Made by a program: the position numbers and the translations under genes. This document shows positions 1-61,113 of a stretch of 64,000 nt of DNA, in pieces. The notes below the pieces were generated by a model that was not told where the DNA came from, did no database searches, and saw only the letters and a program-made list of their open reading frames with translations. The stretch lies in contig JAIPHU010000003.1 in assembly GCA_021735045.1 (NCBI GenBank), positions 304-64,303 of the forward strand. Direction: 5' to 3'. Within the stretch, counting starts at the first letter, position 1. Each line of letters starts with the position of its first letter. Source of the DNA: Candidatus Omnitrophota bacterium. GTDB taxonomy: Bacteria > Omnitrophota > Gorgyraeia > Duberdicusellales > 4484-171.

Positions 1-392
<392 letters not shown>

Positions 393-6825: not shown

Positions 6826-9231
6826 ATGGTTGTAATATCAAAAAAAACAGCTAAAATGATTGATATGATTTATAAATTTAATAACAATACAGAAGAATTT
6901 ACAGTAGATAACGCTTACAAATACAACAACTATTTCCCTTTAACTAATAGATCCGGAAGCTTACTTTCTTCGATCAGTCCTAATTTATCCGGGGATATAA
7001 AAAGAGATAATGATCACTTCCTTACTCCACCGGCAACGATAATCGATACAAGACATAATCCTTTGGTCCGCAGAGATTTTTTTATAAAAATTAATTCTGG
7101 TTCAACAAAAGAAAAAATTATCCGGCTCTCAGATCCATATCCAGACAAGCTTCAAGCTGGTTTTTTTTATCATAAACTTACAAAATACACAAAGTTAATC
7201 GATGTAGAAATATTAAACTTTATCCCTTACAACCTCGATCTAGAACTAATGCAAATTAAAATAAAAAATAAATCAAATAAAGACTTAGATATTTCCGCTT
7301 GCTCATCAATCCCTCTCTACGGAAGAAGTGAGTCAACATTACGAGACCATCGTCATGTAAGCAGCCTTTTAAATCATATTAATTTAACCAAAAATGGCAT
7401 CTTACTTAGGCCTACACTCTTATTTAACGAAAAAGGGCATCAATTAAATCAAACTACTTATTTTTGTTTAGCTAAAAGTCCAAAAGCTAAAATTAAAGGC
7501 CAATTCCCTACTCTTGATTATTTTTGTGGCCAAGGAGACCTGATAAAGCCTGATGCAGTTTATAAAAATAAAAAATCAGCTAAAAAGAAATTAAATAGCT
7601 TTGACGGTAAAGAAGCAATAGCTGCTTTTAATTTTGAAACTAAAAAATTAAAAAAAGGTAAACAAATAAACTATATCATCGGTTTAGGCTTGATAACAGG
7701 CTCTGTGGGAAAATGTCAAAATAAAATAGATAACCTATTTTCTAAAGTCAACACCAACACAAAGATAAAAAAAGAACTTCATAATACTAAAAAATATTGG
7801 CGAAAGAGTTTTAAAAAAATAGAGTTTAATTTTAGCGATAAAAATTATAATTGTTGGCTTAAATGGGTAAAAGCTCAGCCGACCTTGCGAAAGCTTTTTG
7901 GCTGTTCCTTTCTGCCTCATTTTGATTACGGCAAAGGCGGCAGGGGTTGGAGGGATCTTTGGCAAGATGCATTAATCCTATTACACTATGAACCAAAAGA
8001 AGCTCGCAATTTAATTATCAACTCTTTTGCTGGTGTAAGAATAGATGGCTCTAATGCAACGATTATTAAAAAGGATAACTCTTTTTTACCAGACCGAAAT
8101 AAAATCAGCCGGGTTTGGTCTGACCATGGAATCTGGCCGTATCTTACTCTAAAATCTTATCTCAATCACAGTGCTGATATAAATATTTTAAATAATCAGC
8201 TACCTTATTTTCGTGACCCCCACTTATTTCGAGCCAGAAAAATAGATCCTAATTTTAAACAAAAAGATTTTATTTTAAAAACTACAAATAATAAAATTTA
8301 TAAGGGAACTATCCTAGAACACCTGCTTATCCAAAATTTAACATCATTTTTTAATGTTGGTTTTCACAATATTATCAAGTTAGAAAGTGCTGATTGGAAC
8401 GATGCTTTAGACATGGCTGATGATTCTGGAGAGACTGTAACTTTTAGTTTTATGTATGCGCACAATTTAAAAAGTATCGCTCAATTATTGCGCCTTTTGC
8501 AAAAAAAACAAAAGAAAATAAAAATTTTAAAAGAGTTAACTTTGCTCCTTGATAGCTTAGATAGCCCCGTTAATTACAATCATTTTTCTCAAAAACAAAA
8601 AAGATTAAAAAAATATTTAGCCAGTACTATAAAAATATCCGGAGAAAAAATAGAAGTTTCTTTAGAAAATGTTATCTATGATTTAGAAAAAAAATATAAA
8701 CACCTCAAAAATTGGCTCCTAGAAAAGGAGTGGTTAAAAGAAGGTTTTTTTAACGGCTACTATGATAATGCCGGAAAAAGAGTCGGGGGTAAAAACAAAG
8801 GAAAAATAAAGATGATGCTTGCTCCACAAGTTTTTGCCATAATGAGTGAAATAGCTACTGTAGATCAAATTAAAAAAATCTGGCGATCAACAAACAAGTA
8901 TTTAAAAGATAATACTAGAAGTTTTCGGCTTAATACAGATTTTGGCTCTACTTACCAAGAATTAGGCAGAGCTTTTGGTTTTAAGTTCGGTGATAAAGAA
9001 AATGGAGCTTTTTTTAGCCATATGATTATTATGTTTTCTTATGCTCTTTACAAAAGAGGTTTTAAAAAAGAAGGCGCTAAAACCCTCGCTTCTATCTATA
9101 AAATGGTTACATCTAACTCTAATACAACTTACCCCCAACTACCTGAATATTTCAACAGCCAGGGGCAAGGCCTTTATTCCTACCTTACCGGCTCAGCCAG
9201 CTGGTATATCCATACTTTATTACAAAATTAA
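6826..9231 (+). CDS. (alpha/alpha)6-barrel glycoside hydrolase/phosphorylase-like protein (GH94/GH65/GDE-like)
   Basis: 801 aa. GGRGWRDLWQD and ESADWNDALDMADD motifs resemble the catalytic region of cellobiose-phosphorylase-like / amylo-alpha-1,6-glucosidase families. Confidence 0.4.
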   Translation: MVVISKKTAKMIDMIYKFNNNTEEFTVDNAYKYNNYFPLTNRSGSLLSSISPNLSGDIKRDNDHFLTPPATIIDTRHNPLVRRDFFIKINSGSTKEKIIRLSDPYPDKLQAGFFYHKLTKYTKLIDVEILNFIPYNLDLELMQIKIKNKSNKDLDISACSSIPLYGRSESTLRDHRHVSSLLNHINLTKNGILLRPTLLFNEKGHQLNQTTYFCLAKSPKAKIKGQFPTLDYFCGQGDLIKPDAVYKNKKSAKKKLNSFDGKEAIAAFNFETKKLKKGKQINYIIGLGLITGSVGKCQNKIDNLFSKVNTNTKIKKELHNTKKYWRKSFKKIEFNFSDKNYNCWLKWVKAQPTLRKLFGCSFLPHFDYGKGGRGWRDLWQDALILLHYEPKEARNLIINSFAGVRIDGSNATIIKKDNSFLPDRNKISRVWSDHGIWPYLTLKSYLNHSADINILNNQLPYFRDPHLFRARKIDPNFKQKDFILKTTNNKIYKGTILEHLLIQNLTSFFNVGFHNIIKLESADWNDALDMADDSGETVTFSFMYAHNLKSIAQLLRLLQKKQKKIKILKELTLLLDSLDSPVNYNHFSQKQKRLKKYLASTIKISGEKIEVSLENVIYDLEKKYKHLKNWLLEKEWLKEGFFNGYYDNAGKRVGGKNKGKIKMMLAPQVFAIMSEIATVDQIKKIWRSTNKYLKDNTRSFRLNTDFGSTYQELGRAFGFKFGDKENGAFFSHMIIMFSYALYKRGFKKEGAKTLASIYKMVTSNSNTTYPQLPEYFNSQGQGLYSYLTGSASWYIHTLLQN

Positions 9232-15136: not shown

Positions 15137-16270
15137 GTGAATATGAAAAAAAATGAATATTTTATCTATTTAAACCAAAAAGAAAATGATCAAGCAGCAA
15201 AGGAAACTTCCTTAGAGATAAAAGCAAGATTTAAAAACAACCCTGACTTTATTTTTATTCTTTTTACCCCCGGATACAATCCTAAAAAACTATCTCAAGT
15301 TTTTAATTTAACTTTAAAAAACCCTAATTTATTTGCGATTCAAGCCCCTCTTCTAATATATAAAGACAAAATTATCGAAAAAGGGCTAATCAGTTGTTGC
15401 CTGAACAAAAAAGATGCAAAAATTAAGAGTTTATTTATTGGTTCTCAAAATTCAGAGAAAATTGAATATATTTTAAAGAAATATTTTAGAGAAATCAGAA
15501 GAAAAAATATAAAATTTATTTCTTTCATCTCATCCCAAATGAACTCTTTGTCTTTTTTAAAAGGCATAAGATTTTCTTTGGGAAAATTAATTAACTTCTC
15601 CGGAGCAGGATATAAAAATAAATATTCTTCCCAAGAAAACTTCATATTAAACAAAGGAATAGGCAATGGCTTAGTAAGCTTGATCTTAAATGGCATCAGT
15701 ACCAACACTCTCTATTTACAAAATTTTATCCCTTTTGGTAAGCCTTTTAACATAACTAGGCTTAATCCAAAACAACAAATAATTTATGAAATAAACAATA
15801 AACCTGCTGTAGAAATCTATAAATACTATTTCGAGGAAAAATTTAATAATTTTATCAAAAATCGCCTTTTTCCCTATTACCCATTAGGAATATTTACTAA
15901 AAATTATTTCCGCTTATTGACAATAATTGATATACTGGAAGATGGTTCTTTTTTATTTAAAGGAAATTTAAGAGATAAAACTCAAGGAAATCTAATGACT
16001 TTAAGAGACGCATACCCAAAAAAAGATCTCAGAAAAAAACTAGAAAAATCAGAAAAAAACGATGCCGGAATTGTTTTTATGGTTAATTCTTTAGAAAGAC
16101 AAAAAATACTGGGTAAAAAGGCAGAAAAAGAAATTGAAAATATACAAAATATATATTCGCCAAAAAAAGAAATTATTGGTATTTACTCTGATTACTATCT
16201 TTTCCCTGACGAAGAAACTCAAGATATCAATATAGAAAGCGGAGGATTATTATTAAATGTTTGGGAATAA
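15137..16270 (+). CDS. FIST-domain-like sensor protein (alternative ATG start at 15143)
   Basis: 377 aa. C-terminal IIGIYSDYYLFPDEE resembles the FIST_C GFYTYGEI motif. Stop overlaps the histidine kinase start. The track start is GTG. Confidence 0.35.
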   Translation: MNMKKNEYFIYLNQKENDQAAKETSLEIKARFKNNPDFIFILFTPGYNPKKLSQVFNLTLKNPNLFAIQAPLLIYKDKIIEKGLISCCLNKKDAKIKSLFIGSQNSEKIEYILKKYFREIRRKNIKFISFISSQMNSLSFLKGIRFSLGKLINFSGAGYKNKYSSQENFILNKGIGNGLVSLILNGISTNTLYLQNFIPFGKPFNITRLNPKQQIIYEINNKPAVEIYKYYFEEKFNNFIKNRLFPYYPLGIFTKNYFRLLTIIDILEDGSFLFKGNLRDKTQGNLMTLRDAYPKKDLRKKLEKSEKNDAGIVFMVNSLERQKILGKKAEKEIENIQNIYSPKKEIIGIYSDYYLFPDEETQDINIESGGLLLNVWE

Positions 16271-17747
16271 CCCAATTTTACTATCTGAACTTTTAAATGT
16301 TTCTTCTAAAAGTGTATTAGGTATCGGCTCCTTTTTTGTACTATTAATTGTTTTTATCTACATTTTAAAAAAAACACAAACTATATCCGATCTAAAAGAA
16401 GAAAACCATAACTTAAGCAGCACTTTAGAAAAATTAGACCAACAAGCAAAAATAATCTTAAAAAGCGATATGGACGTAAAACTTTATCAACAAGAAATAA
16501 AAGATAGAGGTAATAAACTTAATCTTTTAAGAAGATTTATCTCAACCAGCCTCCCTATACTTAGCAAAAATCAACTATTTTCAAAAATAGATAATCTTTT
16601 AATAGAAAAATTTGGTTTCAAAAAAGGCTTGCTGTTAGATTTTGATAGCCTGGAACAACTCTACAAAAATAATTTTGATCCTGTCGAAACTCAAGCAATA
16701 GTTAATATTCTTTTAAAAAATAAATCTTATCTTAAAGAGAAAAAAATATTAACTTCTGAATCTGAAATTTGCAAAACGCTTTCTTTTAAATTACATACAA
16801 AAAACATACTTATTTGTCCTATCAAAACTAAAAATAAAATTTATAATATTTTTATTGTAGCTGGTTTAATTTCTTCTGAATCCATTAAAGAATCTACAAA
16901 AGAAGCTTTTTTAATACTTTGTATGTATTTAGCTAAATGCTTAGATAATATAGACCTCTTTGAGCAAATTTATCAAACTAAAGAAAGTTTGGAAAAAAAG
17001 ATAAAAAATAGAACTAAAGAATTAGCAAAAAGCTTAAAAACGGTAGAAACAATTAGTAAAACAAAATCAGATTTTATTTCAAATGTTTCTCACGAACTAA
17101 GAACACCTCTTACTTCTGTTAAAGGATTTTCTTCTCTTCTAGCTGATGAAAAGTTTGGTAAATTACCTCAAGAGGCTAGCAAAAGGCTTAAAAAAATAGT
17201 TGAAAACGTCGACAAACTTATGGATATAGTTAATACACTTTTAGACATTTCCCGTATTGAATCCGGAAAAATAGAAATAAACATAACTCTTTACGATATT
17301 GTCCCTTTAATTAAAAATATTGCTGACTTTTTTGAACCTCAAAGCAATGAAAAAAATATAGCCATTGATATAGATACTCCTGAAACTTTTAATGTTTATA
17401 TGGATAAAAATTTAATTGAAAGAGTCTTGACTAACCTTGTTAATAATGCTATTAAATTTACACCTGAAGGAGGTAAAATAAAAATTTCCTGCAAAGAAAA
17501 AGAAGAAAAAGCTTTAATATCTATAGCTGATACAGGATTTGGTATATCTAAAGAAAATTTGGATAAAATATTTCAAGAATTTTATCGAATAAAAGATGTA
17601 GAAAAAAAATCTATAAAAGGAAGTGGGTTAGGGCTTTCTCTAGTAAAAAAAATAATTGATAGCCACAAACAAAAAATATGGGTTGAATCAGAACTAAACA
17701 AAGGAACTACTTTTTACTTTACTTTAGAAAGGGGAAAAAATGAATAA
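16257..17747 (+). CDS. Sensor histidine kinase
   Basis: N-terminal TM. HisKA box SHELRTPLTSV. HATPase_c N, G1 and G2 boxes (NLVNNAIKF, DTGFGI, GSGLGLSLVKKII). Confidence 0.85.
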   Translation: MFGNNPILLSELLNVSSKSVLGIGSFFVLLIVFIYILKKTQTISDLKEENHNLSSTLEKLDQQAKIILKSDMDVKLYQQEIKDRGNKLNLLRRFISTSLPILSKNQLFSKIDNLLIEKFGFKKGLLLDFDSLEQLYKNNFDPVETQAIVNILLKNKSYLKEKKILTSESEICKTLSFKLHTKNILICPIKTKNKIYNIFIVAGLISSESIKESTKEAFLILCMYLAKCLDNIDLFEQIYQTKESLEKKIKNRTKELAKSLKTVETISKTKSDFISNVSHELRTPLTSVKGFSSLLADEKFGKLPQEASKRLKKIVENVDKLMDIVNTLLDISRIESGKIEINITLYDIVPLIKNIADFFEPQSNEKNIAIDIDTPETFNVYMDKNLIERVLTNLVNNAIKFTPEGGKIKISCKEKEEKALISIADTGFGISKENLDKIFQEFYRIKDVEKKSIKGSGLGLSLVKKIIDSHKQKIWVESELNKGTTFYFTLERGKNE

Positions 17748-18669
17748 ATTAAAAATATTGGCTGTAGACGATGACCTAGATATATTAGATTTAATAAAAG
17801 CTACTTTAGAAAGTGAGTTTGAAGTTCAAACAGTTGACACTGGCAACGAAGCCTTAACTAGATTAAAAGAAATTACACCTGATTTAGTTATTTTGGACTA
17901 TATGTTACCAGATATAAACGGAGACCAGATTTGTAAAAAAATAAGACAAGATGCTTTGCTTATGAACTTACCTGTTCTTATGCTTACCGGAAAGGGAGAA
18001 GTTGAAGACAAAGTCAAAGGATTAGAAGCTGGCGCTGACGACTATATGACTAAACCATTTCTGCCGCAAGAGTTAATCGCAAGAATCAGAATGTTAATCA
18101 GAAGATCCAGCCTAAACCTTGATGCTAACCCTTTGACTAGACTACCGGGAAATATTTCCATAAATAAAGAACTAGAAAGTAAATTAAAGCTTGAAGAAAA
18201 CTTTGCTGTTCTTTATATTGACATAGATAACTTTAAAGTATTAAATGATTATTATGGTTTTGGTAAAGGAGATGAAGTAATTAAAAAAACTTCCCAAATA
18301 CTTGTCGAAGCTATCCAAGAAAAAGGCCAAACCAAAGACTTTATTGGCCATATCGGAGGAGATGACTTTGTGGTAATAACTTCTATAAAAAAAGCAGAAA
18401 TAATATCGCAAGGTATACTTTCGAAATTTGATAATTTTTCTCCAAACTTTTTTGCTTCAGAAGATAGAAAAAAAGGCTATATTGAAGCAAAAAGTAGAGA
18501 TGGGCAAACAGCTAAATTTGGGTTTCCTACTATTTCAATAGGCATAATCACCAATGAAAACAAAAAATTTGATCATGTAGCTCAGATAGGTTCTCGTGGT
18601 GCAGAGTTAAAAAATCTAGCTAAAAAATTCCCCGAAAGCAAATATATCTTCGATCGCCGCACAAGTTAA
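17740..18669 (+). CDS. Response regulator receiver fused to GGDEF-type domain (motif GGDDF)
   Basis: REC with D at ILDYMLPD. Linker DANPLTRLPGN. GGDEF-domain core HIGGDDFVV. Overlaps the histidine kinase stop. Confidence 0.75.
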   Translation: MNKLKILAVDDDLDILDLIKATLESEFEVQTVDTGNEALTRLKEITPDLVILDYMLPDINGDQICKKIRQDALLMNLPVLMLTGKGEVEDKVKGLEAGADDYMTKPFLPQELIARIRMLIRRSSLNLDANPLTRLPGNISINKELESKLKLEENFAVLYIDIDNFKVLNDYYGFGKGDEVIKKTSQILVEAIQEKGQTKDFIGHIGGDDFVVITSIKKAEIISQGILSKFDNFSPNFFASEDRKKGYIEAKSRDGQTAKFGFPTISIGIITNENKKFDHVAQIGSRGAELKNLAKKFPESKYIFDRRTS

Positions 18670-33923: not shown

Positions 33924-35662
33924 TCTCCTTCCTCTTTTTGTTTTTGTGAACTTAAAAATTGATCAATCTCTTTTTCTAAGTTTTCATATTTATCTGAACC
34001 TTGCTCTGTATAGTTCCAATCAATAAAAAGCGATCTTAGTTTATAAAACATCTTTCTTGCCTGATCTTTATCAGAAAAACTAAACTTAACATCAAGAATA
34101 GAAAATATTTTATCAAAAACATAGGTTTGCCGCTTGATTCCTGTGGCTGCATCTACTGGATTAAACCCGTTCTGTTGAAGATAAACCGCATCTAAAAATT
34201 CAGCCTTCAGATATACTTGATAATCATCTATTGAAGTACCTTCTTCACCTACAACTTTCATCATCTGGTCGACTTCATCCCCCTTAGTTAAAACATCTTT
34301 AGCTTTTTGTACTTTATTTTTATCTAAAGGCGTTTGGTAGCGTGACCAGCTTTGCAACGGATCCACTGAAGGATATTTGCGGGCATTAGCTCTGTCTCGG
34401 GACAAGCCGTGGAAAGCCCCCACAACTTTAAGAGTGGATTGGGTAACTGGTTCATCAAAATTTCCCCCGGCCGGAGAGACAGTCCCGCCAATGGTAAGAC
34501 TTCCTTTTTTATCAAAGGGAAGCTGAACCTGGCCGGCTCTTTCGTAGAATTCAGCAATGCGAGATTCAAGATAAGCAGGATAAGCTTCTTCTCCTGGAAT
34601 TTCTTCCAACCTTCCTGAAATTTCGCGCATTGCTTGAGCCCAACGCGAAGTTGAATCTGCTAAAAGTAAAACATTTAACCCCATCTGTCGGTAATACTCA
34701 CCTAAAGTTGCGGCAGTATAAACCGATGCATCCCTGGCTGCAACCGGCATCGAACTTGTGTTGCAAATAACAATAGTTCTTTCCATAAGCGAACGCCCTG
34801 TACGCGGATCTTTTAATTTGGGAAATTCTTTTAAAGTTTCAACAACTTCTCCGGCTCTTTCCCCACAAGCAGCAAGCACCACAACATCTACATCTGCATA
34901 ACGGCTTATAAGTTGCTGCAAGACTGTTTTGCCTGATCCAAACGGACCGGGTATACAATAAGTTCCTCCTTTAGCCACTGGAAAAAAAGTATCTAAAATT
35001 CTCATCTTGGTAACTAATGATTCTTGCGGTGTAAACTTTTGAGTATAAGCTGAAATAGGAACCTTAACCGGCCAATTAGCTACCATAGTTACTTTTATCT
35101 TATTCCCGGATTGGTTTCCCAAAACTGCTATTTTATCCTTAACTTTATAGTCACCTTCTGAAGATATTTCTTCAACAGTTAAATCTCCTTTTGCAGAAAA
35201 AGGAACAAAAATAAAATGCTTAAAAATTCCTTCTTCAACATAACCCAGAGGTTGTCCCGCTGAAACCTTTTTACCTTTAATGTTTTCTTTAGGCCTAAAA
35301 TGCCACTTTTTTTTGCTGTCTACAGCTTCAAGTTGTTTACCCCTGGGCAAAAAGACCCCAAACTCTTTGGCCAAATCATGAAGAGGATTTTGCAACCCAT
35401 CATAAACCTGTCCAAGAAGGCCCGGGCCAAGCTCAACTGAAATCATTTCGCCTGAAAACTCAACCTTATCGCCTACTTTTATACCTTTTGTGTCTTCAAA
35501 AACCTGCATAGAAACAGTATTTTGGTTTATACGGATAACTTCTGATTTAAGGCGCTGCTGGTTGGCCACAACATAACCCACTTCATTCTGAGAAACACTT
35601 TCAGCAAATTCAACTGTAATCATATTCCCGCTAATTGCGGTTATTTTACCGGATTTTTTCAT
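33920..35662 (-). CDS. V/A-type ATP synthase catalytic subunit A
   Basis: GPFGSGKT Walker A, 580 aa, non-homologous insert region typical of A subunits. Confidence 0.9.
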
Positions 35663-35779
35663 CTTTTAACCTCATTACTTTTTTCTTCCTTTCAAAGCTT
35701 AACTTCAATCGTTAGTTTTTCCCCTTAATCAGCAATTGATGGAACCAATATTTTCTCTCTTTACGACAGGTAGCTTTTG

Positions 35780-36292
35780 CTATCGCAAAAGATTGGTTTC
35801 ATTTTCTACCTCTGTTAATGAATCAAATTTTTTAGTTCCTTCTTTTTTATCAAAACTCAATACTTTTTCTAATATTTGCAATTTTAGAAAATAAGCTATT
35901 ACCGCCTCTAAGTTAAAAACATATTCTTTAGACCGCTCGCTGAGCTCTTGCCACCTGTAAAAAAATAGTTTATTCTCAACTTCCAGCGGATTACCCTCAA
36001 GAAGTTTCTTTTCTAAAATCAATCGGGGCCCATATTCTTGTTTACTTTTTTTACTCTGTCTGTAAGCTGCCAACTCTTTTCTTAAACTTAGCTCAAACTC
36101 TTTATATTCTTGTAAAAACCGGTTTTTACCTTTTTTTTCTAAATCATCCAGATCCGCTTCTTGCAGCTTAATAAAATCTTCTTTAGTTAACCATTTTTTT
36201 GCTTCCTCTAGAAAAGAATTCTTATCTAAATAGTTTTGTTCCCTAAATTTAAGCAGAGGAAGTTGAGCAATAAGATAGTAGTATTTATCCAT
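35780..36292 (-). CDS. Hypothetical protein within the V-ATPase operon (possibly divergent C/d or F-like accessory subunit)
   Basis: 170 aa, helical. Between E and A. No recognizable motif. Confidence 0.3.
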   Translation of the reverse strand: MDKYYYLIAQLPLLKFREQNYLDKNSFLEEAKKWLTKEDFIKLQEADLDDLEKKGKNRFLQEYKEFELSLRKELAAYRQSKKSKQEYGPRLILEKKLLEGNPLEVENKLFFYRWQELSERSKEYVFNLEAVIAYFLKLQILEKVLSFDKKEGTKKFDSLTEVENETNLLR

Positions 36293-41710: not shown

Positions 41711-42511
41711 TTATTTTTGACAGCGGGGACAAAAGCAGGTTCCTCTCCCGGCTACAACCACCTTTTTAAGAAAAGTTTTACAAACTGGACAAGGTTCATT
41801 CTTTTTCCCATAAACTTTCAGCCTTTTTTCCATTCCCCCGGCTTCTCCGCTTAAATCACGATAAGAATCAACCGATGATCCCCTGTATTTTACAGCTTCG
41901 GTTAAAACCGCTTTTAAATTTTGGTAAAGCTTTTTGATTTCTGAGCCAGATAAACTGTTTGCTCTGCGGCGCGGGTCAATTTTTGCCAAAAACAGAGCTT
42001 CTTGAGCATAGATATTTCCAACTCCGGCAATAAAATTTTGATTCATGATTAAAGCCTTGATATTTCCTTTTTTAGGCTCCACCATCTGTCTAAATTGCTC
42101 AGCGGTTAACTGAAAAATTTCTGGGCCCAATTTTTTTAAAAAATCTAAATCTTTGTAATTTTTTCGCAATCGCAGGTGCCCAAGCAAGCGTGAATCCATG
42201 TAATTAAGTGCTTTGCCATTGGAGAAATTGAAAATTACTCTAGCCCGTTCTTGGCTTTCTCCATAATGAAGCCAGCCGGTCATTCTTAAATGAATTACTA
42301 AAAATTTTTCTTTTTTTAATTTAAGAATCAAAAGCTTGCCCCGCCTGATCACCTTTTCAACTTCTTGACCAATAATTTCTTTTTTAAATTGGGGCCAGGA
42401 TGGTTCTTTTATCACTTCAACTCTGTTAATTTTTACTGCAGTAATTTCTTCCCCGAGAACATTTTCGGCTAATTCTCTTTTGATTGTCTCGACTTCTGGT
42501 AATTCTGGCAT
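41711..42511 (-). CDS. mutM: Formamidopyrimidine-DNA glycosylase
   Basis: MPELPEVETIKRELAENVLGEEI N-terminus (catalytic P2/E3). C-terminal CPVC...CPRC zinc finger. Confidence 0.9.
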   Translation of the reverse strand: MPELPEVETIKRELAENVLGEEITAVKINRVEVIKEPSWPQFKKEIIGQEVEKVIRRGKLLILKLKKEKFLVIHLRMTGWLHYGESQERARVIFNFSNGKALNYMDSRLLGHLRLRKNYKDLDFLKKLGPEIFQLTAEQFRQMVEPKKGNIKALIMNQNFIAGVGNIYAQEALFLAKIDPRRRANSLSGSEIKKLYQNLKAVLTEAVKYRGSSVDSYRDLSGEAGGMEKRLKVYGKKNEPCPVCKTFLKKVVVAGRGTCFCPRCQK

Positions 42512-42669
42512 AGCTTTTTATCCTTTATTTTATTCTTTGTATCAAATTATTTTCTTTTTTATATAGATAACGTCGGATCCAATATTATTATTGATTAAGT
42601 TTTGCTTCGCAAAAATTGGATGCGACTTCTGGTAATTCTGGCATTATACTCTCCAGGTTAACTCAATTT

Positions 42670-44676: not shown

Positions 44677-45945
44677 CTAAAATTGTTTTCCTTTATGAAA
44701 AACTTTTTCGATTTTTCCTTGCAGTTTTCGGCCGAGAAAACAAGAATTTTTGGATTTAGAATAAAAGTTTTCTTTAGAGACTACCCACTCTTTATCCGGA
44801 TTAAAAATAATTAAATCTGCATCGGCTCCAACTTTAATTGATTTTTTCTTTATTTCTAAAATTTCAGCAGGGTTGGTTATAAACTTATCTAGCAAACTCT
44901 GCCAGCTTAAAAATTTCTTTTTAATAAGTTCTGTAAATGCCACCGAAAGCTCTGTTTCCAGCCCAATTGTCCCGAACTCAGCTCTTTGAAATTCAATATC
45001 TTTTTCATTCTCTGTATGAGGAGCATGATCAGAAGCAATTACATCAATTACGCCATCAGCTAAAGCTTGTTTGATTGCTAAAATATCCTCTTGGTTGCGT
45101 AAGGGTGGATTGATTTTTTTGTTGGTATCAAAACTCCAAAGATCTTTTTCCGATAATGAAAAATAGTGGGGAGCAGTTTCTGCGGTAACCTGAACTCCTT
45201 TCTTTTTAGCTTTCGCAATAATCTCTATGGATTCCTTACAGCTTACGTGAGCAATGTGTATTTTTGCATCAGCTTTTTTTGCTAACTTTATGTCTCTAGC
45301 TACTCTCATAAACTCGGCTGACTTTGGTATTCCCCGCAAACCAAGACAAGTCGAACTAAAGCCTAGATTGAGCACTCCTCTTTTTGATAAAGTTTTATCC
45401 TCGCTGTGGCAGATTACAGTAATATTGTTTTTCTTAGCTTGCTTTAAAGCTTCTAGCATCAGTTGGCTATTATCCACTGAATCACCATCATCGGTTATAG
45501 CTTTTATCCCTTCTTTAGCTAATCTTTCTATATCACCAAGCTCTTTGCCTTTTCTGCCTTTGGTTATGGCTGCAGAAAGAAAAACATCAACAAAAGCTTC
45601 TTGTTTAATCTTTCTTTTTAGGTATTTTACTGTTTCTCTGGAATCTATCGCTGGTTCTGTATTTGGCATAGCTAAAACCGAACCTATTCCGCCGGCTAAA
45701 GCAGCTCTGGTACCAGTTTTAATCTCTTCTTTATCTTCCCTGCCTGGTTCACGTAAGTGAACATGCATATCTATAAGCATCGGCAATACTATCTTTCCTG
45801 CCGCATCTATAATTTTATCAATCCCTTCTGGATTAATAGCTGTTGCGATATCAATTATCTTGCCCGCCTCGATTAAAATATCTTCTTTCCTAGATCGGCC
45901 GGTACCGGCCCTAACTACTTTTGCATTTTTAATCAAAGTTTTCAT
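44677..45945 (-). CDS. pyrC: Dihydroorotase
   Basis: DMHVHLREPG metal-binding motif, 422 aa. Confidence 0.85.
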   Translation of the reverse strand: MKTLIKNAKVVRAGTGRSRKEDILIEAGKIIDIATAINPEGIDKIIDAAGKIVLPMLIDMHVHLREPGREDKEEIKTGTRAALAGGIGSVLAMPNTEPAIDSRETVKYLKRKIKQEAFVDVFLSAAITKGRKGKELGDIERLAKEGIKAITDDGDSVDNSQLMLEALKQAKKNNITVICHSEDKTLSKRGVLNLGFSSTCLGLRGIPKSAEFMRVARDIKLAKKADAKIHIAHVSCKESIEIIAKAKKKGVQVTAETAPHYFSLSEKDLWSFDTNKKINPPLRNQEDILAIKQALADGVIDVIASDHAPHTENEKDIEFQRAEFGTIGLETELSVAFTELIKKKFLSWQSLLDKFITNPAEILEIKKKSIKVGADADLIIFNPDKEWVVSKENFYSKSKNSCFLGRKLQGKIEKVFHKGKQF

Positions 45946-55705: not shown

Positions 55706-55981
55706 TTATTCAACCTCTATATCTACCCCTTTAATGGCGGGGAAGTTTTGTTTTATTTTTTTTTCTATTTTTCCCTTTTGTAGCCTAAGCTCATAAACAG
55801 CGCTGGATGACCGGAGAAAAAACACTATTTTTTTGTTTGGTTTGGGCTCTATCCGCAAATGTTTTACTGTTTCGGCTTTTAAGGTTTCTTTTAATATTTT
55901 TTTTATTTTTTCGTGTTCTTTTTGTTTCTGTTTGTTTTTTTGTAAATACTTATCAATTATTGTTTTAATGTGTTCTGCCAT
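55706..55981 (-). CDS. DUF721/DciA-like small protein between dnaN and gyrB
   Basis: 91 aa, basic. Conserved position between dnaN and gyrB where DUF721 proteins sit. No recF present. Confidence 0.4.
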   Translation of the reverse strand: MAEHIKTIIDKYLQKNKQKQKEHEKIKKILKETLKAETVKHLRIEPKPNKKIVFFLRSSSAVYELRLQKGKIEKKIKQNFPAIKGVDIEVE

Positions 55982-57081: not shown

Positions 57082-57177
57082 AGTCTTAGTATAAGTAGTT
57101 GTTGTTAAAATTGTTAACTTTTGAAATATTATAACAATTATTTAAGAAAAAGAAACAATTCAATAAAAAAAACATTA

Positions 57178-58512
57178 TTATAAGTTTTTAATTTCCTGTG
57201 CAAGGCTGTTAACTGTTGTTTTTAACTTCTCATCTTTAGTTAAAGCCTTTCTTATTTTTTTACAAGCATAAAGAATATTAGTGTGATGTTTACCCCCAAA
57301 AAAACCCCCAATTTCAGGGAGAGAACTCTCGGTCAACTCTCTTGTTAAATACATTGCAACCTGACGAGGCAAGACCAAAGTTTTACTTCTTTTAGCTTTT
57401 TTTAAATCTTCCTTGTCAACTCCATAAAAACAACTAACTTTATCCAAAATAATTTCCGGAGTAACTCTTGCGCTGATTTCGCGAACCATATCTTTTAAGA
57501 TTCCTTTAGCTAGATCAACAGTGATTGTTTTATTTTCTATTAAGGAATAAGCTATAATTCTAACTAAAGCCCCCTCTAGTTCGCGGATATTTGAAGAGAT
57601 ATTTTCAGCAATAAAGCGGATAACTTGGGGGTCAACCTTTACTGCTTCGTTTTCTAGTTTTTTCTCTAAAATTGCGACTCTGGTTTCATAATCCGGAGTT
57701 TGGATGTCAACAACCAAGCCCCAGTTAAAGCGGGAAACCAATCTTTCTTCTAAATCTGGAATTTCTTTCGGGGGGCGATCCGAAGAGACAACGATTTGTT
57801 TATGGTGGTCGTATAAGACATTAAACGTATGAAAAAACTCTTCCTGGGAAGCCTCTTTCCCCGAAAGAAATTGGATATCATCGATTAAAAGAATATCTAT
57901 GTCTCGATATTTTTTTCTAAACTTATCCGTGTTTCTTTGCCGAATAGAAAGAATAAGGTCGTTAGCGAAGCTTTCTGAAGAAATATACTTAACTTTTGTT
58001 TGTGGGTTTAAAGAAAGCACATAATTAGAAATTGCTTGCATCAGGTGAGTTTTACCTAAACCAACTCCTCCATATATAAAGATCGGGTTGTACGACTTTC
58101 CTGGGGCTCGGGCAACAGCTAAAGATGCAGCATGCGCCATTCGGTTTGAAGAGCCAACTACGAAATTATCAAAAGTAAAGCGGGGGTTGAGCCGCAAGGA
58201 TGTTTGGGTTTTTTCTCCAAAGCTTTTATTAAAAGAACGAAAGATTTTTGTAGTTTTACTTTTAAGGATACCAGGATTTACCCGGAACTCTATATTTATT
58301 TTCTTTCCCTCAACTTCTTGGGAAATCTCTTCTATAGAAGAAAGATAGTTGCTTTCTACCCAGTTTTTAAAAAAACTGTCAGGAGCCTCTAAAACCAGAT
58401 TTCCTTTAGAAGCTTCTTTGAGCTGTAAAGGAGATATCCAAGTATCAAAAGAAGTTTCTCCTAAACGTTCTTTAAGCTTTTTTTTACAATTTTCCCAAAT
58501 ATCTTGTTTCAT
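57178..58512 (-). CDS. dnaA: Chromosomal replication initiator protein
   Basis: GGVGLGKTHL Walker A, AAA+ box, C-terminal DnaA-box-binding helix-turn-helix. 444 aa. Confidence 0.9.
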   Translation of the reverse strand: MKQDIWENCKKKLKERLGETSFDTWISPLQLKEASKGNLVLEAPDSFFKNWVESNYLSSIEEISQEVEGKKINIEFRVNPGILKSKTTKIFRSFNKSFGEKTQTSLRLNPRFTFDNFVVGSSNRMAHAASLAVARAPGKSYNPIFIYGGVGLGKTHLMQAISNYVLSLNPQTKVKYISSESFANDLILSIRQRNTDKFRKKYRDIDILLIDDIQFLSGKEASQEEFFHTFNVLYDHHKQIVVSSDRPPKEIPDLEERLVSRFNWGLVVDIQTPDYETRVAILEKKLENEAVKVDPQVIRFIAENISSNIRELEGALVRIIAYSLIENKTITVDLAKGILKDMVREISARVTPEIILDKVSCFYGVDKEDLKKAKRSKTLVLPRQVAMYLTRELTESSLPEIGGFFGGKHHTNILYACKKIRKALTKDEKLKTTVNSLAQEIKNL

Positions 58513-58712
58513 TGACGATTTAACAAAGTTAACAACTTATTCACATTTTTAAGGAATGATTATTTCCTGCGCGGTACCAGAAGTAACCTATTGATTTTGA
58601 ATAACCAATTATACCTCAATAAAATATCTTTGCAACTTTTTTGTAGTTGACACCTAATTATTTTATGCTACAATTTCAACTTACCTGATAGTATATTGAA
58701 TTTAAAAAAGGC

Positions 58713-58764
58713 GATGAGCTATATAAGTATAGTTAATTTTTGATAAAAAGATAACTAAAAGGTG
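58713..58764. repeat. 52-bp perfect direct repeat, copy 1 (promoter/RBS-like module)
   Basis: gatgagctatataagtatagttaatttttgataaaaagataactaaaaggtg is identical at 58861-58912. Copy 1 precedes a 15-codon ORF (58769-58816, MYAFFAAGKHSLAIA) and a complex hairpin (58772-58832). Copy 2 precedes rpmH. Confidence 0.7.
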
Positions 58765-58860
58765 CAAAATGTATGCGTTTTTTGCCGCAGGCAAACATTC
58801 TCTAGCTATTGCCTAAGAGAATATAACGCATCCATGTAATGTATTAGACTCACAAACAGT

Positions 58861-58912
58861 GATGAGCTATATAAGTATAGTTAATTTTTGATAAAAAGAT
58901 AACTAAAAGGTG
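58861..58912. repeat. 52-bp perfect direct repeat, copy 2 (ends at the rpmH Shine-Dalgarno AAGGTG)
   Basis: Identical to 58713-58764. Confidence 0.7.
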
Positions 58913-58919
58913 AAAAAAC

Positions 58920-59057
58920 ATGAAAAAAAATCTAAAAACACCTAGTAATTTAAAAGGGAAAAGAAAACACGGTTTTCGTAAGAGGATGAGCTCGAAAAAC
59001 GGGAAAAAAATAGTAAATCAACGGCGAAGAAAAGGGCGTAAAAAAATATCTGTATGA
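58920..59057 (+). CDS. rpmH: 50S ribosomal protein L34
   Basis: [45 protein letters not shown] matches the L34 consensus. Not in the ORF track (under the length cutoff). Confidence 0.85.
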
Positions 59058-59260
59058 GAAGGGCTGCTATCTTTTTAATCCAGATATATCAAAAACTTCC
59101 CCAATTCTTGCCTACTTCTTGCATATATATCCCAACTTGTTCTGAATATGCTAAGCAAGCTTTTGAGAAGCATTTCTTTTTAAAGGCTTTGGGGTTGACT
59201 GTATTTCGCATCTTACGTTGTAATCCTTTTTCACGAGGTGGGTTTGACCCTGTGAGGTAA
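59054..59260 (+). CDS. yidD: Membrane protein insertion efficiency factor YidD
   Basis: [13 protein letters not shown]...[13 protein letters not shown] conserved YidD motif. ATGA overlap with rpmH. No rnpA between rpmH and yidD. Confidence 0.8.
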
Positions 59261-59262
59261 CA

Positions 59263-60708
59263 ATGGAAAAAAGAACAGTTTTTGCTTTTTTATTGTTGAT
59301 TGGCTTTTTTTTGGTTTGGTCTCAGTTTGCTCCAAAGAAGGTTCCACAAACGCTTGAAGGACAAGAAGTTGTAAGCGAAAGCGTGCAAACGACCCCCCAA
59401 GAGCCTCAGCCGAAAATATCGGAAGCCGGAGAAAAAAGCCTTCCTGCAGAAGGTGTCGCCCTCAAAGAAATAAAAATAAATAACTACTATATTACCTATT
59501 CTCCTCAGGGTGGATATATTCAGTCCATTGCTTTAAATAAACCAACTAATATTCTTCCTTTTCAGAACTTAGGGTACCAATCAGCGAAAAAGGACATAAA
59601 CTATAAAGTTAATGTTGGGCAAGACAGCATTTCTTTTGTTGAGGGCAGTTCCCCTCCCAAAAAATATGTTTTTAGTGAGGATACCATAAAGATAGAAAAT
59701 GTTGCCGGCTCCCCCATTTTATTGTTTTCATTTTCTTTAAATTCAGGAACTTCACATATAAGTAAAAGGTATTTTGAATCATTTTATAGTAAAGATAAAT
59801 CTATCCAAAGAACCCATCCTAAAAAAGTTAAACAAGAAGTTGAAAAAAGAGTAGAATTTGCCGGGGCTAGGAGTAGGTATTATGCAATTAGTTTATTACC
59901 CGATCTTTATAATATTGAATGGAGCAAAACTAAAGAAAGAACAAATCTTTACCTAAATAATCCTTCCTCCACCATATTGCTTTATCTTGGGCCGCAAATT
60001 ACCGACAATATGGAAACATATGGGTTGGCGGGTATAGTTTATTATGGGTTTTGGCATTTTTTGGCGGTAGCAATTATAAAAATACTATATTTTTTCTATA
60101 GTTTTCTGCATAATTGGGGGCTTAGTATAATCTTTCTTTCTTTTTCTACTTATGCTGTGCTGTTTCCTTTTACTTCAAAAAGTACCAAAGCAATGAAAAA
60201 GATGCAAGAGATTCAGCCCTTAATGCAAGAGTTAAAAGAAAAACATAAAGATAATCCTCAAAAGATGCAAAAAGAGACTGTTGAGCTTTATAAAAAGCAT
60301 AAAGTAAACCCTTTGGGCGGGTGTCTTCCTCTTTTGTTTCAATTCCCGATAATTATTGCTTTTTATCAAGTAGTCTTTAGGTTTAGCCGGCTTCAAGGAG
60401 CTTCTTTTCTTTGGATTCAGGATCTATCCTTGCCGGATCGGTTGTTCCATTTGCCTTTTACGATTCCTGTTGTAGGTGTTGAATATTTTAATCTTCTTCC
60501 TATTCTAGTAATGATTTTAGGAATTGTTCAACAACACATAACAGCTTCTTCGTCAAATCCTCAACAAAAAAAGATAGGTTTATTTATGGGAGTATTTATT
60601 GGAATAATATTTTATAAGTTTCCTTCTGCATTAGTTTTGTATTGGTTTGTGCAAAATCTACTCACTCTTATCTACCAAGTCCGTTTGAAAAAAGCCCGCA
60701 CCACCTAA
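59263..60708 (+). CDS. yidC: Membrane protein insertase YidC
   Basis: 481 aa. Periplasmic N-domain plus 5-TM YidC/Oxa1 core (LYWFVQNLLT). Confidence 0.85.
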   Translation: MEKRTVFAFLLLIGFFLVWSQFAPKKVPQTLEGQEVVSESVQTTPQEPQPKISEAGEKSLPAEGVALKEIKINNYYITYSPQGGYIQSIALNKPTNILPFQNLGYQSAKKDINYKVNVGQDSISFVEGSSPPKKYVFSEDTIKIENVAGSPILLFSFSLNSGTSHISKRYFESFYSKDKSIQRTHPKKVKQEVEKRVEFAGARSRYYAISLLPDLYNIEWSKTKERTNLYLNNPSSTILLYLGPQITDNMETYGLAGIVYYGFWHFLAVAIIKILYFFYSFLHNWGLSIIFLSFSTYAVLFPFTSKSTKAMKKMQEIQPLMQELKEKHKDNPQKMQKETVELYKKHKVNPLGGCLPLLFQFPIIIAFYQVVFRFSRLQGASFLWIQDLSLPDRLFHLPFTIPVVGVEYFNLLPILVMILGIVQQHITASSSNPQQKKIGLFMGVFIGIIFYKFPSALVLYWFVQNLLTLIYQVRLKKARTT

Positions 60709-60749
60709 AAAAGATCACTTAAAATCAAAAAACGCTTATTTGGCAAGAG

Positions 60750-61030
60750 GTATTTACGTTTTCACGTGAAAACGCTGCAACCCCTTGATTCTATTAACAT
60801 TTTCTATTTTTACGTGTATCTTTCCAGCTATTAAAGAGGGCTGAAAGATCCATGTGGGAACCTCTACACAACTAGAAAGAAGGAGGCGTTTTCACGTGAA
60901 AATTTTCTTGCTTCTAGATATATGAAAATTTCCACGTGGATATTCTCCTTTTCTTTAGGTGGTGGAGAATATACACGTGAAAACGCTAGAACCCCTTGAT
61001 TTTATTAACAATTCTCATTTTGGTTGTTAT
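60750..61030. promoter_or_regulatory. parS: Cluster of parS-like palindromes (GTTTTCACGTGAAAAC at 60758 and 60888; variants at ~60927, ~60972, ~60850) with two ~40-bp direct repeats, followed by an AT-rich tract (61023-61113)
   Basis: 14/16 match to the parS consensus TGTTTCACGTGAAACA. Immediately upstream of parA-parB. Confidence 0.65.
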
Positions 61031-61113
61031 TTTTTTTGAGTAATTAAATAAAAATGGTTGCAATTCTCATCAAATAGTATTAAAATAAAGAAAATTGAAA
61101 TATTTATATATTA

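Follow-up and report, generated by a model that had tools for sequence, protein, structure and literature searches.

The 407-bp gap between dnaA and rpmH (positions 58513-58919) in a 64,000-nt stretch of a Candidatus Omnitrophota metagenome assembly (GCA_021735045.1, contig JAIPHU010000003.1; hereafter the window) holds two identical 52-bp direct repeats on either side of a nested hairpin, features that had been predicted to belong to the replication origin, or else to be a duplicated promoter and leader with a peptide attenuator. We consider it probable that the two 52-bp stretches are instead copies of the rpmH leader lying around the hairpin, and that this locus is one member of a dispersed family of modules situated at start codons. 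As we describe it, a module is composed of H, a palindromic three-way junction, and U, an A-rich spacer that ends in a Shine-Dalgarno (SD) element and abuts the ATG of the gene. With similar confidence we favor H-U as a selfish or neutral duplicative element over a regulatory RNA under selection with copies at a few genes, and what looks like an origin repeat or attenuator would then be a modular 5' untranslated region (5' UTR) cassette of variable copy number. Four sets of observations carry this reading: the anatomy of the leader, the conservation and covariation of H, the presence and absence of the module among relatives with exact boundaries, and its copies at unrelated genes. For the comparisons, the dnaA-rpmH regions of relatives were examined from 96% down to 70% DnaA identity; their loci carry L-numbers (L081, L082 and so on).

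Anatomy and covariation at rpmH

The right two-thirds of the gap are the 5' leader of the rpmH mRNA. Both copies of the 52-bp repeat lie within this leader, downstream of a single promoter, and its parts are as follows.

58684..58768, plus strand: U1, the upstream leader copy; its 5' 29 nt are diverged and its 3' part is repeat copy 1, with the SD AAAGGTG at 58758-58764
58769..58835, plus strand: H, a three-way-junction hairpin of 67 nt (covariance-model match, 82.8-86.8 bits)
58769-71 with 58833-35, plus strand: basal helix of H, AUG:CAU (fold)
58773-79 with 58825-31, plus strand: outer stem of H, AUGCGUU/AACGCAU (fold)
58781-86 with 58790-95, plus strand: first inner hairpin of H (hp1), GCA triloop (fold)
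58797-803 with 58816-22, plus strand: second inner hairpin of H (hp2) (fold)
58769..58816, plus strand: open reading frame (ORF) of 15 codons and a stop (MYAFFAAGKHSLAIA), its start codon within H
58836..58919, plus strand: U2, the working rpmH leader, which holds repeat copy 2; SD at 58906-58912
58920..59057, plus strand: rpmH, ribosomal protein L34 (Pfam PF00468, E = 8e-16)

The direct repeat is perfect between 58713-58764 and 58861-58912 (two matches against none expected in shuffled sequence), with the caveat that consensus calling in the metagenome-assembled window could slightly flatter identity over the full 52 bp, and it extends to 81 nt at 86% identity. That both copies end in an SD was part of the original prediction and is borne out, and the proposal that the second copy drives rpmH is supported. 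The nested hairpin is also real: its fold is a three-way junction with an energy of -21.7 kcal/mol (z = -3.55). At the start of rpmH (58920-58931) the ATG is followed by a run of eight A (ATGAAAAAAAAT), which is kept in relatives and could permit transcriptional or translational slippage.

A perfect repeat in a metagenome-assembled genome might have arisen by the joining of strain variants, and assemblies of relatives do break in the gap (L081, L084, L087-L089, L101), showing that the region is hard to assemble. We nevertheless regard an assembly artefact as very improbable. The junctions from repeat to H, from H to repeat and from repeat to rpmH must all exist in reads, the diverged two-copy leaders of L082, L083 and L093 cannot be artefacts, and L091, from a separate study, has a matching layout. 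L101, an independent Logan assembly contig of another run, has base 1 of repeat copy 2 as its own first base, and a true two-copy repeat would break the de Bruijn graph at just this point.

The 15-codon ORF is present and starts at 58769, as predicted. In all rpmH copies its AUG is base-paired with a CAU on the 3' edge of H, and its peptide, MYAFFAAGKHSLAIA in the window, becomes MYALFCRRQNIFRVLRKKISAFI in L082, MYVISGAAG in L083 and MCVISGEARCFNGFHTHASYRN in L091, differing in both sequence and length; a conserved leader peptide is therefore excluded. The ORF is a by-product of a displaced start codon, and the pairing of its AUG suggests that it is probably poorly translated. No intrinsic terminator or terminator-like site was found in 58300-59200, and H is followed by CCAUGUAAUG, without a U-tract. 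The peptide-attenuator interpretation thus fails on three counts, namely a peptide that differs completely among relatives, no intrinsic terminator, and an ORF AUG that is paired within H. The accompanying suggestion of a duplicated promoter and leader holds for the leader; the promoter is single, upstream of both copies, and none lies inside the repeat.

Searches for known RNA classes gave no alternative identity for the region. Rfam returned no match in the gap, either in a permissive search of 58000-59500 or at the gathering threshold over the whole window, and ARAGORN found no tRNA-like gene in the gap, though some copies have a 7-bp stem followed by CCA. A hammerhead-like core (GAUGAG) was inspected by eye and dropped, its junction linkers being too short, and an integron attC site was rejected on the polarity of its terminal motifs (GTT...AAC rather than AAC...GTT).

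The fold of H is conserved and covaries. In an alignment of six H sequences, 97.7% of cells are paired, compared with 29-47% when the partners are slid, and 8 pairs are changed on both sides, with all three helices represented. An alignment of ten sequences from three insertion sites gives 98.1% paired cells against 24-39% with partners slid, and both-side changes in 9/16 pairs; the RNAalifold consensus is the same three-way fold. Variants of the outer stem include AUGUGAUA/UAUCACAU in L083, AUGCAAU/AUUGCAU in L114 and AUCCAAU/AUUGGAU in L130 and L116, and those of hp1 include UUGCC/GGCAA, CCGGC/GCCGG and CUGGC/GCCAG. Among the relatives with ~70% identical DnaA the order is unchanged: AUG, one base, the 7-bp outer stem, hp1 with a GAA, GCA or AAA triloop, hp2, the outer stem, C, and CAU. 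G:U pairs are nearly absent (1/155 cells in the ten-sequence alignment); the one U:G wobble, in the first H of L093, is compatible with the sense RNA only.

In L081 (96% DnaA identity; 100-245, minus strand) the outer stem of H is kept and hp1 is replaced by ~70 nt of GC-rich nested palindromes, ATTCGCCGG...CCGGCGAAT and ATACGCCGG...CCGGCGTAT. From its sequence, this locus indicates that palindromes may expand rapidly inside the H element.

Filled and empty sites, and copies at other genes

The number of H-U units at rpmH varies among relatives. One copy is present in the window, L081, L082, L083 and L091, and none in L085/L086 (92% DnaA identity), L092 (89%) or L095 (80%), while L093 (83%) carries a tandem array with two H and three U (2.5 copies of a 145-nt period, 91% matches). 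The flanking direct repeats would permit loss and gain of units, which would explain the 0, 1 or 2 copies in relatives. In L085/L086 and L092 there is a single 98-nt leader that, in the leader alignment, is homologous along its length to U2 of the window; loci with the extra block have a second, upstream leader copy (U1, ending in SD and ATG) together with H. The two leader copies relate to each other differently from locus to locus. U1 is short and diverged in L082 and L083 (94%), the window has identical last 52 nt in U1 and U2, and L091 (84%) has a perfect 84-nt repeat of its own, at a spacing of 130 and unrelated in sequence to that of the window, in the layout U-ATG-H-U-ATG-rpmH. From these sequences, the H-U copies appear to have been homogenized independently in each lineage, and the unit behaves like a tandem repeat under unequal exchange or gene conversion, not like an origin element.

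The ~70% relatives were recovered with a pattern derived from the dnaA promoter, which matches 11 loci and had no match in one metagenome collection that is without the close clade. In nine of their loci (L103, L104, L109, L117, L122-L125 and L128) rpmH is apparently leaderless, with the -10 hexamer TAAAAT followed by TTCACCT and ATG-AAAAAG, so that 7 nt separate the hexamer from the ATG and there is no SD. The corresponding filled sites, in L130 (= L138, L120, L121) and L116, read TTCACCT-ATG, then H, a 77-nt U, and ATG-AAAAAG. L114 has the same ATG-H-U-ATG layout with an 80-nt U, its first ATG preceded by a 23-nt leader and not by TTCACCT. The insertion in these relatives is exact at the start codon, and U there copies no pre-existing leader. 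Annotation of rpmH should take into account that the gene is leaderless in part of the lineage. One 70% relative (L097/L098) has a short rpmH leader that forms a hairpin, CCUCUGUU...AACAGGAGG, which by its predicted fold would sequester the SD, a different solution at the same leader position. A covariance model did not find H at the loci of relatives with ~50% identical DnaA.

Covariance models also located modules at genes unrelated to rpmH. One model (R1) found a copy at yidD in L082 and another (R2) found two further copies in the window:

42490..42644, minus strand: H-U module at fpg/mutM (R2, 26.8 bits, E = 5e-4; Pfam Fapy_DNA_glyco)
35660..35802, minus strand: H-U module between a DUF2764 gene and the gene for V-type ATPase subunit A (R2, 30.9 bits, E = 4.5e-5; fold; Pfam)

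As a negative control we used 654 kb of viral DNA, unrelated and selected beforehand by the outer-stem pattern, in which R2 had zero matches; the scan of viral DNA for that pattern returned chance matches only. A strict structural scan of the 64 kb found exactly three modules and one likely chance match, against ~0.6 in shuffles. At fpg, the first 22 nt of the gene (ATGCCAGAATTACCAGAAGTCG) are perfectly duplicated (42644..42623 and 42511..42490) and flank H (42625..42573), whose basal helix is UCG:CGA rather than AUG:CAU, and a 61-nt U (42572..42512); given the perfect duplication, this insertion would be very recent. At the V-ATPase A gene the old ATG (35802-35800) is followed by H (35802..35739), a 76-nt U (35738..35663) and the ATG of the gene (35662-35660). 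The DUF2764 ORF here runs into H and stops within it (35780-35802, minus strand), so the insertion altered the C-terminus of the upstream protein; without the module its stop would fall 17 nt into the V-ATPase A gene, an overlap typical of coupled genes.

The yidD copy of L082 is a second H directly after the yidD ATG; behind it come a 79-nt U of its own and a new ATG. The site is empty in the window, L083 and L092, and L085 retains a remnant in which H is deleted and U is kept. We rejected an origin of this U as a duplicate of the 3' coding end of rpmH; that similarity is not significant, whereas the similarity to rpmH leader U is weakly so. The L082 yidD U resembles the L091 rpmH U (z = 3.7), and the last 52 nt of the fpg U are ~73% identical to the 52-bp repeat of the window (z = 3.3).

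Across these sites the unit measures 128-153 nt, with an H of 51-68 nt and a U of 76-85 nt (61 nt at fpg). All gene-associated copies are in sense orientation with their 3' ends abutting the start codon, and the direct repeats that flank them are 3 nt (ATG), 22 nt, 52-88 nt and 84 nt long. Inverted termini, made of the outer stem and the basal helix, belong to H and not to the whole H-U unit. The basal helix fits whatever precedes it: the 3-6 nt before H pair with the nucleotides after H at all four start-codon sites, and also at two hairpins that split parS-like sites further to the right (see below), with the pairings ATG:CAT, UAUG:CAUA, UCG:CGA and CACGUG:CACGUG. We considered ATG on both sides of H as a 3-nt target-site duplication and discarded it; the base after CAT is G in some copies only, the fpg copy has no such repeat, and the invariant feature is the inverted complement.

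The same data bear on the idea that H, alone or together with U, acts as a cis-regulatory RNA under selection, such as an autoregulatory leader for L34, a 5' stabilizer or a translational switch. Covariation extends across all helices, lineages spanning 70% to 100% DnaA identity retain H at rpmH, the AUG:CAU pairing is invariant there, the single U:G wobble fits the sense RNA only, and transcripts of the ~70% relatives would have H as their outermost 5' stem-loop. However, a plain or leaderless rpmH suffices in the 92%, 89% and most of the 70% relatives, in which H is missing, and the module also stands at three genes with no function in common, fpg, V-ATPase A and yidD. One G:U pair in 155 cells would be unusual for a selected RNA, and there is neither an Rfam match nor a known L34 leader in the literature searched. 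Overall we think a selected regulatory function unlikely, and hold equally doubtful its further version, in which the duplicated SD-AUG is part of the logic, for example as a decoy start opened or closed by H.

The strand switch and the origin question

Within the gap lie the divergent promoters of dnaA and rpmH, at a switch of coding strand and GC skew. To its left, on the minus strand, are gyrB, a 91-aa gene, dnaN and dnaA; to its right, on the plus strand, are rpmH, yidD, yidC, parA, parB and ndk.

57178-58512, minus strand: dnaA, left border of the gap
58537..58545, plus strand: DnaA-box-like TTATTCACA with 1 mismatch, in the dnaA 5' UTR, 25 nt from the dnaA ATG
58608..58635, minus strand: dnaA promoter TTGCAA-16-TATAAT (consensus scan)
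58647..58674, plus strand: rpmH promoter TTGACA-16-TGcTACAAT, with 11/12 matches and an extended -10; kept in relatives
60759-60774, 60889-60904, 60929-60944 and 60970-60985: parS-like palindromes (match to parS consensus)

Both promoters are near-consensus, and transcription of rpmH is inferred from the promoter sequence to start near 58681. Consensus scans, of sigma-70 type only, detected no promoter within U or H at the three window copies. The dnaA promoter lies in a block, ATTATAyCkCAATA-N5-TCTTTGCAA, that is common to all relatives examined, down to 70% DnaA identity. The single DnaA-box-like site claimed at 58537-58545 is present; it occurs in all relatives, several of which have a second copy ~21 nt away, is the sole box-like site conserved in the gap, and is probably autoregulatory.

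The strand switch had been described as complete. Among ORFs of at least 150 aa in the window this is correct for the right side, where all are on the plus strand, and not for the left, where five plus-strand ORFs interrupt the minus-strand series: four stand alone (6826-9231, 15137-16270, 16257-17747 and 17740-18669), and the fifth (45254-45760), which is unlikely to be a gene, is nested in a minus-strand ORF of greater length (44677-45945). GC skew along the window stays negative until ~57.5 kb, is close to zero from there to 61 kb and turns positive beyond, so that the sign changes around the gap; at such resolution the dnaA-rpmH and yidC-parA gaps are not separable. An origin is likely to be nearby because of the skew switch, dnaA and a parS cluster 2 kb to the right, and to this extent the original proposal of a candidate origin stands.

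That the repeats and hairpin are themselves parts of oriC (iteron-like or DnaA-related), or a duplicated promoter with a peptide attenuator, seems to us extremely unlikely. The circumstantial case for it is real, in that the strand and skew switch adjoins dnaA, the gap has one DnaA-box-like site, and parS sites 2 kb away place an origin near. Against this, a relaxed scan found no cluster of DnaA boxes in the gap or elsewhere in the 64-kb window. The conservation expected of an oriC also fails, the 52-bp repeat being missing in the close relatives L085/L086 and L092 (92% and 89% DnaA identity) and replaced in L091 by a repeat that is unrelated in sequence, yet alike in architecture. Equivalent repeats flank a like hairpin at non-origin genes, including fpg, 16 kb away, and the attenuator half of the proposal meets a single promoter, no terminator and a peptide that is not conserved. 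A more general warning for annotation is that small ORFs and perfect repeats beside dnaA need not be origin features.

Upstream of parAB, the yidC-parA gap (60709-61113) contains four parS-like palindromes of 16 bp each (GTTTTCACGTGAAAAC and variants). The window has four CACGTG sites, every one of them in this gap, and relatives hold 2-6 copies; we had considered these palindromes as DnaA boxes and rejected that assignment in favor of the parS consensus match. A stretch of 17% GC follows the cluster (61000-61113). As a place to look for oriC, the yidC-parA gap with its centromere-like cluster is at least the equal of the dnaA-rpmH gap. Two hairpins in it (60808-60860, plus strand; 60926-60984, minus strand) resemble parS sites interrupted by an H-like palindrome, with the arrangement GTTTTCACGTG-T-AT...AT-C-CACGTGGAAAC, and the yidC-parA gaps of L082 and L083 also hold such hairpins. 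They share with H the 'N-AT...AT-C' junction and the inverted flank, lack U, and have stems and loops that resemble hp2 (ATTCTCC...GGAGAAT), a likeness which suggests that H may be a composite of nested simple hairpin elements.

Further observations concern DnaA binding and the neighboring genes. A motif (G/T)TTAACAA(C) lies just upstream of both dnaA (58516-58545) and dnaN (57095-57125, minus strand), and several relatives have two TT(A/T)TTCACA boxes ~21 nt apart before dnaA; both motifs may be sites of DnaA binding specific to this lineage. Between dnaN and gyrB, the 91-aa gene (55706-55981, minus strand) has no Pfam match in the window, and its counterparts in L095 and L097 match DciA (PF05258) weakly, so it may be a candidate for the helicase loader DciA. 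The common bacterial gene order is rpmH-rnpA-yidD-yidC; in the window and all relatives rnpA is absent from between rpmH and yidD, which overlap through an ATGA (59054-59057 in the window) and are followed by yidC. Synteny is lost right after the conserved dnaA promoter in several relatives (L084 1-200, L087-L089 1-400, L093 600-1390), and past the break rpmH is replaced by other genes or a CBM_11 gene is inserted. Many relatives' contigs terminate within the dnaA-rpmH gap, which is therefore a hotspot for rearrangement or for assembly failure. For annotators it is relevant that assemblies tend to break at H-U modules.

Mode of spread and comparison with known systems

A module sits exactly at a start codon, and the downstream gene starts from the SD and ATG at the 3' end of U. 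The displaced start, either the ATG alone or the ATG and a few codons, remains at the 5' edge of H, its last three bases complementary to the bases that close H. At rpmH in the window, the presence of U on both sides of H would reflect the remains of a tandem array or a duplication, and the last 52 bp of U1 and U2 may have been kept or made identical through recent duplication or gene conversion. In the mRNA, H would fold, hide the orphaned AUG and so silence the old start, the A-rich U with its SD would act as the working initiation region, and H may in addition stabilize the transcript, above all at loci where it forms the outermost 5' stem-loop. In the DNA, direct repeats around a palindrome would favor slipped-strand deletion and unequal exchange, which would account for loss, gain and homogenization of units, and the module would spread duplicatively, by transposition or by template switching during replication.

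Quasi-palindrome template switching is a known mutational route. The near-absence of G:U pairs, together with a basal helix that fits the preceding sequence, therefore suggests maintenance of the palindrome at the level of DNA, for example by such switching; both features equally fit recognition of a single-stranded DNA (ssDNA) hairpin by a transposase acting in trans. It is possible, if on balance doubtful, that H-U is a small mobile module that homes to start sites, inserts at the start or a few codons past it, brings a spacer, SD and ATG with it and locks the orphaned start, its palindromes being made by template switching and not by a transposase.

Several points weigh against a duplicative module of this kind. 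No transposase or other mobilizing enzyme has been identified, the ORFs of the window not having been screened for transposases, and flanking duplications that range from 3 to ~88 nt are produced by no known transposition mechanism. There are only three copies in 64 kb, empty alleles come from rpmH and yidD and not from fpg or V-ATPase A, and the similarities between U copies are modest (z = 3-4) and lie in A-rich sequence. The persistence of H at rpmH across 70-100% DnaA identity, with its covariation, would also fit a selected RNA function, and the evidence base consists of metagenome assemblies, sequence only.

A related alternative is that H-U is a non-autonomous derivative of a transposase-mobilized element, either like a MITE (miniature inverted-repeat transposable element) or of the palindrome-associated IS200/IS605 type, moved in trans as ssDNA, precisely excised and inserted beside a short target such as ATG. 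Such an origin would account for the exact empty sites, for the hairpin-rich ends of H and the small hairpin of U, and for strict Watson-Crick pairing, which fits a DNA-level hairpin; an ATG is re-formed at the 3' end of the module, so that tandem insertion would be possible, and the three window copies all lie on the lagging-strand template, an orientation confounded with that of the genes. We nonetheless judge it rather improbable. No transposase gene was seen near any copy (with the limit on screening of window ORFs given above), duplications of 22-88 nt are foreign to these families, the fpg copy is not beside an ATG on its 5' side, and copy number is low.

Set beside known systems, the duplicative H-U module shares some traits with each of several classes. 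Like ribosomal-protein leaders and attenuators, it is a structured 5' UTR before a ribosomal protein gene, a short upstream ORF overlaps the structure, and the structure upstream of rpmH is conserved with covariation; unlike them, it is not specific to rpmH, is dispensable in close relatives, and is without a terminator, a conserved peptide or a match to an Rfam family. Neither Rfam nor the literature searched contains an rpmH/L34 leader.

With MITEs, REP/BIME, ERIC, Correia, RUP/BOX and Rickettsia palindromic elements it has in common that it is short, non-coding, hairpin-forming and dispersed. Small palindromic repeats, like H-U, differ in presence from one close relative to another, are in many cases transcribed together with genes and in some cases nested, the nesting here being the extra GC-rich palindromes within H of L081. 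In a MITE the target-site duplication is short and constant in length, and the terminal inverted repeats match an insertion sequence. The multiple dispersed copies of H-U with presence/absence polymorphism, three in 64 kb and the yidD copy in relatives, are MITE-like; its duplications, in contrast, vary greatly in length rather than being short and fixed, only the H part is palindromic, and the gene-associated copies are all in sense orientation and abut a start codon. The ends of IS200/IS605-family and palindrome-associated elements offer further likenesses in their ssDNA hairpins, precise excision, lack of a fixed target duplication and bias of orientation relative to replication. They differ in that no tnpA or tnpB was found (window ORFs not screened) and no conserved target tetranucleotide has been shown, and long flanking duplications are unexpected in IS200/IS605.

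To our knowledge, repeats that carry a ribosome-binding site (RBS) and a start codon are known from few organisms only (Neisseria REP2, Borrelia IR-A). Here filled and empty alleles, tandem arrays and nested variants are visible in natural populations of an uncultivated phylum, and these provide concrete intermediates for a mechanism.

By description, the best reading is that the H-U module would be closest to Neisseria REP2 and Borrelia IR-A. Neisseria REP2 (CREN-type) and Borrelia IR-A/IR-B are units of 120-150 bp with two internal stem-loops near the 5' end, carry a promoter, RBS and ATG fused to downstream ORFs, and stand immediately upstream of many unrelated genes, their origin being unknown (PMC3184786). 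H-U differs in that its stem-loops are enclosed by an outer stem in a three-way junction that pairs with a displaced start codon, in that no promoter was detected inside it, and in that its insertions duplicate the target start region (3 to ~88 nt) and form tandem arrays; it also comes from another phylum, and at such a distance sequence homology to REP2 is unlikely. The resemblances are to be seen in size (128-153 nt against 120-150 bp), in the position of hp1 and hp2 within the 5' 51-68 nt, in the lack of classical terminal inverted repeats spanning the whole unit, in the occurrence of several copies right upstream of unrelated genes, and in a 3' end that supplies the RBS and ATG, here to rpmH, fpg, V-ATPase A and yidD.

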